DNA of 14,434 nt, from the NCBI RefSeq assembly GCF_006345805.1, contig NW_021825856.1, positions 1 through 14,434 on the forward strand, in the 5' to 3' direction. This document shows positions 2,210 to 13,322 of the stretch, piece by piece; the first letter of the stretch is position 1; each line of letters opens with the position of its first letter. A model generated the notes under the pieces. That model was not told where the DNA came from. It was given only the letters and a program-made list of their open reading frames with translations, and made no database searches. The position numbers were made by a program, and so were the translations under genes. Source of the stretch: Octopus sinensis. Taxonomy: Eukaryota.

Positions 2210-2290
2210 ATGAAAGAGAAAGTTGAGCCGAGAATCTGCTTCAAATTTTGCCAAAAGGTTGGTGATACCGGATCAGAGGCCTACGCATAG
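2210..2290 (+). pseudogene. Mariner transposase N-terminal fragment
   Basis: MKEKVEPRICFKFCQKVGDTGSEAYA* resembles the EQRxCIKFCxKLGxTxxEAY start of the first mariner HTH. Confidence 0.8.
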
Positions 2291-2700
2291 TTTTCAAAAA
2301 GTTTTCATCGGTCTTGACACAATCAAGGAGATCTTGCGCAACTGAAACCCGAGTTTCTTTTTGGTCAGCTGAAAGCAGTTTTGGTATAGACTTAGCATAC
2401 ACCAGTGTCATACCCAAATCTCCAGTGATAATGGACAGAACCGAACGGTAACTAATCTGCAAAACTCCTGATATCTCACGGATGTTGATCCGAAAATTTC
2501 TCTCACAGCTGCACGCACATCTGCGATGTTTTTCTCAGTTCTGCTGGTTGCGGGTCTGCCATAACGTTCGCCTATATCGACATTTTTTCGGCCATCTTGG
2601 AAACGTCTGACCCACTCATACACTCGTGTGCGGCTCTTACTCTCTCCTCTCCATACATTTTCTGCAACTTCATGTAGGCTTCTGAGCATGTATCGTCATG
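2290..2700 (-). pseudogene. Mariner transposase DNA-binding region, frameshifted, no catalytic domain
   Basis: Three frames join: DTCSEAYMKLQKMYGEE / SRTRVYEWVRRFQDGRKNVDIGERYGRPATSRTEKNIADVRAAVRE / ISYRSVLSIITGDLGMTLVYAKSIPKLLSADQKETRVSVAQDLLDCVKTDENFLKT. Contains GRP and WVP(K/H)xL-like motifs and stops just before the expected first catalytic Asp. Confidence 0.9.
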
Positions 2701-2919: not shown

Positions 2920-3272
2920 TATTACAGTTCTATATTTAAGAGATGAGGAATTATGTACATTATTTCCATTATTTACAGTATTTACATTCAACGGATATTT
3001 GTCCTCATCTTGTGTGTTGTTAACACAACGTTTCGGCTGATATACCCTCCAGCCTTCTTCGGGTGTCTTGGGAAAATTTCGAACCTGGGTTCGCATTCCT
3101 ATGGTATTTTTCGATGTTGATATCATTATTATCATTATTGTTGTTGTTGTTGTTGTTGTTGTTCAAGTCAATGCTTGGAATCGAAGTAGGAATCTTGGAG
3201 TTAGTAGTCCGCGCTCTTAACCACTCCGCGATATGCCCGTGGTCATATGGCGTAGTGGTGAAGAGCGCAGGC
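2920..3272 (-). mobile_element. tRNA-headed, hammerhead-containing short retroelement with an inverted partial second head
   Basis: Minus strand from 3238: GGGCATATCGCGGAGTGGTTAAGAGCGCGG (A-box-like), CTTCGATTCC (B-box-like), (AAC)n/(AAT)n, hammerhead motif at 3067-3022, AT-rich 3' part. 3241-3268 is an inverted copy of the head (24/28). Confidence 0.75.
3022..3067 (-). ncRNA. Minimal type I hammerhead ribozyme motif (U4C variant)
   Basis: GACAC-CCGAAGA-A-GGCUG-gaggguauau-CAGCC-GAAAC-GUU-GUGUU: helix I GACAC/GUGUU, helix II GGCUG/CAGCC, palindromic AACGUU in place of helix III. Confidence 0.7.
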
Positions 3273-6764: not shown

Positions 6765-7173
6765 CTTTTACATTCTTTTACTCTTTTACTTGTTTCAGTC
6801 ATGTGACTGTGGTCATGCTGGAGCACCGCCTTTAGTCGAGCAAATCGACCCTAGGACTTATTCTTTGGAAGCCTAGTACTTATTCTATCGGTCTCTTTTG
6901 CCGAACCGCTAAGTTACGGGGACGTAAGCACACCAACATTGGTTGTCAAGCGATATTGGGGGAACAAACACATACACGCAAACATATACACACACATACA
7001 TACATATACTTATTACGACGGTCTTCTTTCAGTTTCCGTCTACCAAATCCACTCACAAGGCTTCGGTCGGCCCGAGGCTTTAGTAGAAGACACTTGCCCA
7101 AGATGCCACTCAGTGGGACTGAACCCGGAACAATGTGGTTGGAAAGCAAGCTACTTACCACGCAACCACTCCT
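6765..7173 (-). mobile_element. tRNA-derived SINE, family A, best-preserved copy
   Basis: Minus strand AGGAGTGGTTGCGTGGTAAG (A box), GGTTCAGTCCC (B box), CORE-like CTTGGGCAAGTG, internal (TG/TA)n, 3' stem-loop CAGTCA-CA-TGACTG and a (GTAAAAGA)n tail. Confidence 0.9.
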
Positions 7174-7427: not shown

Positions 7428-7744
7428 GGAGGCGCAATGGCCCAGTGGTTAGGGCAGCGGACTCGCGGTCAGAGGATCGCGGTTTTGATTCCCAGACCGG
7501 ACGTTGTGTGTGTTTATTGAGCGAAAACACTTAAAGTTCCACGCGGCTCCGGCAGGGGGTGGTTGCGATCCCTGTTTTACTCTTTCGCCCCAACTTTCTC
7601 TCACTCTTTCTTCCTGTTTCTTGAGTAACGTTGCGATGGACTGGCATCCTGTCTAGCTGGTGGGGGGACACATTTACCATAGAAACCGGGAAACCGGGCC
7701 CATGAGCCAAGCTAGGCTTGAAAAGGTCTAAAAAAAGAAAAAAA
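7428..7744 (+). mobile_element. Full-length tRNA(Arg-like)-derived SINE, family B, with 12-bp TSD
   Basis: A box TGGCCCAGTGG, B-box-like GGTTTTGATTCCC, A-rich tail. GAAACAATAAAA at 7416-7427 and 7745-7756. Confidence 0.92.
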
Positions 7745-12215: not shown

Positions 12216-12962
12216 TATGTACTATATAATAATAATTTATATAATTATATAATATAATACATATACACACATGAATTGATTGATTGATTGATGGACTGAG
12301 TGGTTGATTTGGTTTATTGGTGAAATTTCCGTTTCATAAACAGTAAAATTAGTCAATATATAACATAGAGTGTATATTTAATTAAAAAGTGAGATTTCGG
12401 GAATCAGAACAACGTAGCACTCAGTTTCACAGTAGCAATTATGAAGAATAATGAAATGTAGAAGTAGCATGACAATATATAGGAAAAAATATTCATCCAT
12501 CGAAATACGAATTGTCAAAATTACATAGCATAGCTACTTGTATAGTTGGCCACCAACCAAAACAGAAAGAGTTTAGAAAAATGTAACTTACTATTTAATT
12601 CGCAATGCACTTAGTATTTTTAATCTGTTGACGGGACGAAAGACATCATATAGTTATGTTTTCGGTATCATATGTGTAAAACACACGTACGTACAAAAGG
12701 CCGCATTGTTAATTATTTTTAATGTTACATATTGTTCCACAGCACCCATAAATCAACAATTCAATTGTCTGATGATATATGAATATGGAATATAGTGCTA
12801 CTATTCAAGAAGATCTAATGAGAGAGAGAGAAAGAGGTGTATATATATAGAGAAAGAGAGAGATAGAGAGAGAGAGAGAAAGTGAGAGAAATACTGACAG
12901 ATACACACACACACAAACACATAAACATGAACTAATTATATTATAGTAATCACCGATAATTA

Positions 12963-13322
12963 ACTGACACTTCGTCGGTTATGACGACGAGAATTCTAGT
13001 TGATACGATCAACGGAACAGCCTGTTTGTGAAATTAACGTGCAAATGTCAGAGCACTCATATGTGTCCCCTTAACGTGATGTGTCTCCTTAACGCAGATA
13101 TGTGTCTCCTTAACGTAGTTCTCAGGGAGATTCAGCATGACATAGAATGTCTCAAGACTGGCACTTTGAAATACAGGTGCAACTCATTTTTGCCAGCTGA
13201 ATGAATCGAAATAACGTGAAATAAAGTGTCTAGCTCAGGGACATCATGTGCCACCAGGAATCGAACTCACAAATTTATGATCGTGATCTGAATATTCTAA
13301 TCAATAGGCCACGCACCTCCAC
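12963..13322 (-). mobile_element. tRNA-derived SINE, family C, full length
   Basis: Minus strand GTGGAGGTGCGTGGCCTATTGATTAG (A box), GAGTTCGATTCC (B box), CORE-like TCCCTGAGCTAGACACTTTA, 3' hairpin TCGTC-ATAACC-GACGA. Head related to family B. Confidence 0.85.

Follow-up and report, generated by a model that had tools for sequence, protein, structure and literature searches.

The window, a 14,434-nt stretch of Octopus sinensis DNA (contig NW_021825856.1), carries on its minus strand a unit in which a tRNA-like head is followed by an (AAC/AAT)n spacer, then by a type I hammerhead of the minimal kind and by a 9-bp complement. An earlier note on this DNA had placed the unit at 2920-3272. The minus-strand unit is real but begins at about position 3244; what lies upstream (3235-3272) is an inverted, plus-strand fragment of the head. 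The features are:

3244-3163, minus strand: tRNA-derived head, the 5' end of the pLTR and the likely start of transcription; the best of nine genomic tRNA types compared is Arg(TCT), z 8.4
3231-3221, minus strand: A box, with a G>C change in the window copy; the family majority fits the A-box pattern, 13 nt after +1
3186-3177, minus strand: B box, with a G>C change in the window copy; the family majority fits the B-box pattern
3162-3119, minus strand: (AAC/AAT)n spacer of variable length, median ~38 nt
3096-2923, minus strand: codons 1-58 of a Penelope ORF, with the ATG at 3096-3094; the window copy stops at the long 3' end
3076-3073, minus strand: TTTT, a minor variant (7 of 123 copies) that is not in the family majority
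3067-3022, minus strand: minimal type I hammerhead; core 3062-3056 with U4>C at 3061, GAAA at 3034-3031
Hammerhead stems, minus strand: stem I 3066-3063 with 3026-3023, stem II 3054-3050 with 3039-3035, stem III a 2-bp palindrome
After 3027, minus strand: hammerhead cut, predicted from sequence
3010-3002 with 2949-2941, minus strand: 9-bp complementary pair, enclosing the short 3'-end cluster; a candidate structure for the initiation of reverse transcription
2962-2923, bounds approximate, minus strand: optional Penelope 'tail', between the two 3'-end clusters (PMC11167929)
3235-3272, plus strand: part of the head (positions 1-38) repeated in inverted orientation as a fold-back arm, overlapping the 5' palindrome

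In the window the unit stands solo, has an inverted arm of 38 nt and lacks poly-A. This copy is likely to be inactive, because both boxes and U4 are altered (the C at this core position had already been pointed out) and a TTTT is present. On the window unit Rfam called neither a hammerhead nor a tRNA and ARAGORN called no tRNA; relaxed ARAGORN, which is noisy (107 calls over 80 related loci), sees the head only at its loosest setting. The fold of the whole unit is no better than that of shuffled sequences (z -1.03). Over 49 aa, the 58 codons share 45% identity with the start of a related Penelope protein, P0001 (E 6e-5; N-terminus).

Other repeats share the window. A broken transposase fragment, presumably mariner-like, lies just downstream of the unit (2241-2695, minus strand), and a ~200-bp interspersed repeat occurs twice in opposite orientations (1698-1899 and 6808-7009, 87% alike). 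Further tRNA-derived SINE heads are indicated by weak profile hits and a weak Rfam tRNA hit at 879-919, 7105-7145, 7437-7494, 13254-13315 and 12303-12358. At a separate locus, seven tRNA-Cys genes lie within 3 kb (L227:493-3006).

The unit represents a repeat family rather than a chance arrangement, since exact 30-mers are abundant in the 2.72-Gb, microsatellite-rich source genome (4,274 for the hammerhead, 504 for the CpG-rich head and 400 for the ORF-head junction) while reversed controls give 0. The hammerhead half yielded 4,335 first-look candidates, the best 40 of them at 89-94% identity, and rough scaling leads to ~21,000 hammerhead arms and ~1,600 ORF ends; exact matches are unusable for the copy number of the head (1 of 72). 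The stretch was also found in sequencing runs of five organisms, none of the runs listed being RNA, and is present in the contigs of two possible RNA runs; in a DNA run of a related organism the summed contig depth is 3.6-fold higher at the head, a figure that is not a copy number. The earlier note had proposed that the head and hammerhead halves be checked for linkage; they are linked in 72 of 86 loci selected by pattern (from 100 listed places among 504, on contigs C1-C3), in 27 of 30 selected by the head, the window itself included, and in 20 of 29 selected by the hammerhead.

Both halves belong to a coding element with the order head, (AAT)n, ATG, hammerhead, reverse transcriptase (RT), GIY-YIG, stop and head again. 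At one hammerhead locus, RT and nuclease codons end just before a head, and in 27 of 30 loci selected by the ORF (24 of 27 after four duplicates were collapsed) the ORF end passes into the head at one fixed junction. At the other end of the element, the 'tail' runs on into the ORF start, so that a pLTR is found at both ends and overlaps the start of the ORF, as in Penelope elements. The hammerhead half encodes the first codons of the ORF, and one natural copy holds a stop-free frame of 401 aa running from spacer through hammerhead into ORF. The majority sequence has a stop-free frame of 799 codons. Pfam finds an RVT_1 domain (E 1.4e-10) but no GIY-YIG in the piece that was scanned, which is decayed; the C-terminal GIY-YIG/CCHH nuclease motifs align with those of relatives. 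The ORF protein is 54% identical to P0001 and 35-43% identical to the anole protein P0018, which is taken from its N-terminus to be PAc, and from this identity to P0018 and the domain order we infer a placement in Penelope/Poseidon.

Given the head at a fixed ORF junction, the 'tail' that runs into the ORF start, the RVT_1 domain and the nuclease motifs, the unit almost certainly consists of the pLTR and tail from an autonomous retrotransposon of the Penelope/Poseidon kind, and this the main one of the genome. The 30 loci that best match the anole Penelope protein are all members of the family of the window unit, and none of these 30 belongs to a control Penelope family in the same genome. The suggestion that the unit is mobilised by a Penelope RT/GIY-YIG protein was thus well judged, as was the statement that it has no poly-A or LINE-type tail: its 3' half is instead Penelope N-terminal coding sequence. 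The 9-bp complement is confirmed. Within the N-terminal coding part, a 9-nt repeat (2950-2988 in the window) varies across the family by whole units, so that the reading frame is kept. Four copies of one near-full-length insertion, 98-100% identical, were met on a chromosome and three small contigs (L072, L078, L079 and L080), which reflects either recent duplication or assembly redundancy.

The earlier note had seen in the unit a separate, non-autonomous SINE/retrozyme hybrid. A form of this reading, an independent non-autonomous Pol III SINE or retrozyme that borrows a Penelope 3' end and whose ORF-linked copies are secondary chimeras, can point to the excess of solo over ORF-linked copies (64 against 22 of 86), to a sharp 5' end and to the flipped palindrome loops of some solo arms. 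It is nevertheless very improbable. One fixed ORF-head junction recurs in 400 exact copies, the head also runs into the ORF start, and the 30 best Penelope loci of the genome are all of this same family. When 102 solo units were compared with 40 ORF-linked ones, divergence was equal (88% against 87-88%) and polymorphisms were common to both, which gives no indication that SINEs form a lineage of their own; candidate solo-specific variants were rejected, as the differences at P<0.01 were CpG sites or due to the sampling of copies. It is this comparison, together with the junction in 27 of 30 loci, that largely refutes independence. As in SINE2 elements, the head is tRNA-derived with A and B boxes (the source tRNA is not pinned down by the nine types compared), but a separate non-autonomous lineage is not seen, nor is a LINE-derived or poly-A tail or a target-site duplication. 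The head-to-tail tandem units, each with a hammerhead, that characterise retrozymes were likewise not found in the copies inspected, which are single or head-to-head.

The minimal hammerhead proposed earlier is well conserved. A check of the consensus for CUGANGA found CTGA(T/A)GA in 181 of 250 copies, 147 of the 250 additionally retaining GAAA, and at U4 itself 89% of copies have T and 8% have C. Stems I and II covary across Penelope families at 8 of 9 pairs in a set of 12 hand-picked sequences (five from the family of the window unit and seven relatives). By sequence and covariation, then, the pLTR holds a minimal type I hammerhead with a palindromic stem III, another Penelope trait, and self-cleavage is predicted. 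Similar minimal hammerheads are described as weak cutters that need to be dimeric or to have a protein present (PMC4209133, PMC11167929), and in one RNA run read ends do not pile up at the predicted cut. A 6-bp hairpin, CGAACC/GGTTCG, had also been proposed; it was rejected as a conserved structure, having a 2-nt loop and a first C that is a private change of the window copy, and in the family the stretch is simply codons 1-6 of the ORF.

The spacer, which the earlier note had described correctly, holds a further element at some loci. Fragments of another LINE, which we take to be Dong/R4-like, lie inside the (AAT)n stretch at L061:2372-3791 (with an RT frame of 393 aa) and in L075 after 2300, and in L044 after the head (all oriented). 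With LINE fragments in several spacers, a LINE that targets TAA repeats may be using the spacer as its insertion site.

The ends of the copies are informative. Near-full-length and short copies alike have their 5' ends at the start of the head, where ends pile up: 64 of 86 head copies lack an upstream ORF (three keep a few ORF-end bases by eye), and the 22 that extend into it have ends scattered over 45-780 nt. Among six copies with head, hammerhead and ORF start, five begin at the head and one is in tandem. Inverted arms precede 38 of the 86 heads. At the 3' side the ends gather at two places (132 and 170 of 317), with none between them at positions 166-176, and both recur as loose ends. No target-site duplication over 8 nt was seen in 30 solo copies. 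An optional tail of 30-40 bp and inverted 5' arms are Penelope features, the former explained by two internal RT start sites (PMC11167929) and the latter described for Penelope (PMC8557442, PMC3846280).

It has to be asked what the 5' pile-up means. The 5' palindrome, with a 5-bp stem and a 2-nt loop, could itself create it by self-priming (PMC3846280), and the pile-up would then mark a hot spot for RT stopping or fold-back in long tandem RNAs and say nothing about a promoter. Fold-back arms of 1-75 nt do begin exactly at the palindrome, and palindromic inverted junctions are known in Penelope (PMC3846280). Many copies, however, begin at the palindrome without any fold-back, so small a stem and loop would be expected to make a weak stop for ~70% of cDNAs, and the depletion of T runs set out below is left unexplained; we regard this account as improbable. 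The loop of the palindrome is flipped in 9 of 54 solo arms against 1 of 30 ORF-linked arms, which is compatible with re-copying of solo units.

The alternative is that transcription starts at the head. The tRNA-like head with A and B boxes, as recognised in the earlier note, is borne out by the family, in which consensus-type boxes lie at +14 (A) and +59 (B), exactly where the 5' ends pile up (64 of 86), and fit the consensus although ARAGORN no longer recognises a tRNA. By comparison, A and B boxes occur together in none of the 11 distinct hammerhead pLTRs readable among 80 related Penelope loci from metagenome contigs (a set that does not include P0001, the closest relative), and 6 of the 11 have a TATA ~51 nt upstream. 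Tentative tRNA-like boxes upstream of related Penelope ORFs at two loci (L281 and L341) were set aside, as they look like unrelated neighbours, and another SINE family as donor of the head was rejected, other tRNA-like heads in the loci scoring 20 bits or less among the matches listed. In ORF-linked copies, the ~15 bases that immediately precede the head look like an inverted head start (for example L064:2270-2300, oriented), as if the head had first been joined to the ORF end through a fold-back insertion.

If Pol III transcribes the element, T runs are expected to be absent from the transcribed strand. The 2.7-kb column majority has no run of four or more T on the sense strand and 30 on the antisense strand. 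In the ORF, TTTT occurs 0 times against 4.6 expected; a codon-aware null gives P=0.005 for T4 and P=0.002 for T3, and the same test applied to 26 related frames gives P<=0.05 in one. Further nulls range over P=0.003-0.028, the stricter ones giving weaker T4 depletion (P=0.026-0.028). Across 42 natural copies, which are not independent of one another, there are 32 T4 runs against 173 expected, and across 52 related ORF stretches 328 against 248 expected; three of the 52 have no T4, and these three carry T runs in or beside the pLTR. This test sets a majority sequence against single natural relatives, and some observations count against its message: G4 runs are also missing (0 against 3.1), and another long ORF of the same genome has no T4 (0 against 2.6). 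Non-canonical terminators number 0 against 1.9 expected (P=0.19). A related Penelope family with 47% identity to P0001 (L291, L325) has ~2 kb of ORF without TTTT and a T-rich pLTR without boxes.

Taken together, the depletion of T runs, the boxes at the 5' pile-up and the relatives without boxes suggest that Pol III drives an autonomous retrotransposon. We consider it probable that the unit is a Penelope/Poseidon pLTR and tail whose tRNA-derived head is an internal Pol III promoter, and the head itself probably functions in this way. That Pol III makes the full-length element RNA is more tentative, falling a little short of an even chance. So too does the fuller proposal of a whole 2.7-kb Pol III RNA purged of terminators and translated without a cap, with a terminal repeat that doubles as a SINE and has thousands of solo copies.

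Some evidence counts against Pol III. The ORF end has a TATA-like word at -28 that overlaps the stop codon, and TCACT near -13, so that tandem copies could start a Pol II RNA at the same place; both words are known from rotifer pLTRs (PMC3846280). RNA made by Pol III has no cap and is usually short (PMC10886601), which leaves translation of the ORF to be accounted for. The single raw RNA run comes from a related organism (6% of it read, 12,481 reads, library strandedness not shown); its reads are about equal on both strands, 74% continue into unlike sequence and there is no pile-up of starts or ends, as read-through from host transcripts would give. Libraries of this type lose short RNAs.

These points lend weight to a reading in which the element is the same Penelope but its head, once part of a SINE or a tRNA pseudogene, became fixed in the pLTR as a passenger, with Pol II transcribing tandems from the TATA at the end of the upstream ORF and with solo units the dead by-products of internal RT initiation. 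The TATA at -28, the read-through seen in the RNA run and the want of variants private to solo units all suit it, and textbooks have Penelope transcribed by Pol II from tandem copies (PMC6765202, PMC3846280). It sits poorly with a sense strand depleted of T runs, with boxes that match the consensus in a head that ARAGORN misses as a tRNA, and with a tandem arrangement in only one of six copies with a 5' pLTR. A passenger head is therefore rather unlikely, though the most serious competitor to a head that acts as promoter.

With the head as promoter, a cycle can be proposed. The RNA would start at the head under the internal Pol III promoter, and the element's protein would nick AT-rich DNA, RT then beginning inside the RNA at one of two sites in the first codons, as has been shown in vitro for the anole Poseidon element (PMC11167929). 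From the 5' site RT would copy only the first ~320 nt, yielding solo units such as the window copy, and from the 3' repeat it would copy the ORF. The cDNA end may fold back on the 5' palindrome or join a second cDNA to give inverted arms. Cleavage by the hammerhead is predicted only for a dimer or when protein assists. If their boxes are intact, solo units could be re-copied, in which case the repeat would act as a built-in SINE.

How does the element compare with known systems? With the Penelope/Poseidon PLEs described from the anole (PAc; PMC11167929) and those with minimal hammerheads (PMC4209133), it shares an RT with C-terminal GIY-YIG, solo pLTRs, a minimal type I hammerhead pLTR overlapping the ORF start, two RT start sites with an optional tail, and inverted 5' arms, but unlike them its pLTR starts with a tRNA-derived A/B-box head and its sense strand is free of TTTT. 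Schistosoma Sm-alpha and Sj-alpha (PMC6765202, PMC2770079) similarly combine a tRNA-derived head, Pol III promoter and hammerhead in a short repeat. As tRNA-SINEs with hammerheads are known in schistosomes, the hybrid envisaged in the earlier note would not be new; the schistosome repeats, however, are described as ORF-less, non-coding, SINE-like and tandem, whereas the octopus unit is dispersed or head-to-head and lies within a coding element. The TRIMp3 elements Cassandra, Helenus and Ajax (PMC10886601) also have a small-RNA-derived Pol III promoter within a terminal repeat, but these are non-autonomous LTR elements of 0.3-1.3 kb whose autonomous partners are argued to require Pol II (PMC10886601), and the octopus repeat belongs to an autonomous element. 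Non-LTR retrozymes (bioRxiv 10.64898/2026.07.22.740005) resemble it as non-coding derivatives of Penelope pLTRs with type I hammerheads; they are defined by head-to-tail tandem arrays, which dominated none of the octopus loci inspected, and the words 'tRNA' and 'Pol III' are absent from the main text of that paper.

The available text of the cephalopod repeat papers (PMC13282606 with its supplement, PMC8967140) reports Penelope and SINE classes and does not mention a tRNA-headed Penelope, and that of PMC4494074 has non-autonomous fusions only. Searches of the open literature showed no tRNA-headed Penelope of the autonomous kind, though a database entry in Repbase or Dfam may exist. An autonomous Penelope with a tRNA-derived head may be new.

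By the usual division, autonomous retrotransposons are transcribed by Pol II and only short non-coding SINEs by Pol III (PMC10886601). If the reading favoured here is true, a Penelope element whose terminal repeat holds a tRNA promoter and whose coding strand is terminator-free would break that division and allow one to test directly whether translation and retrotransposition are open to a long Pol III RNA. The element also shows a route by which a SINE-like element can arise within its own helper, since the RT of Penelope initiates internally, close to the 5' end of the RNA. In practice, thousands of SINE-looking repeats in this octopus genome are the ends of Penelope elements.
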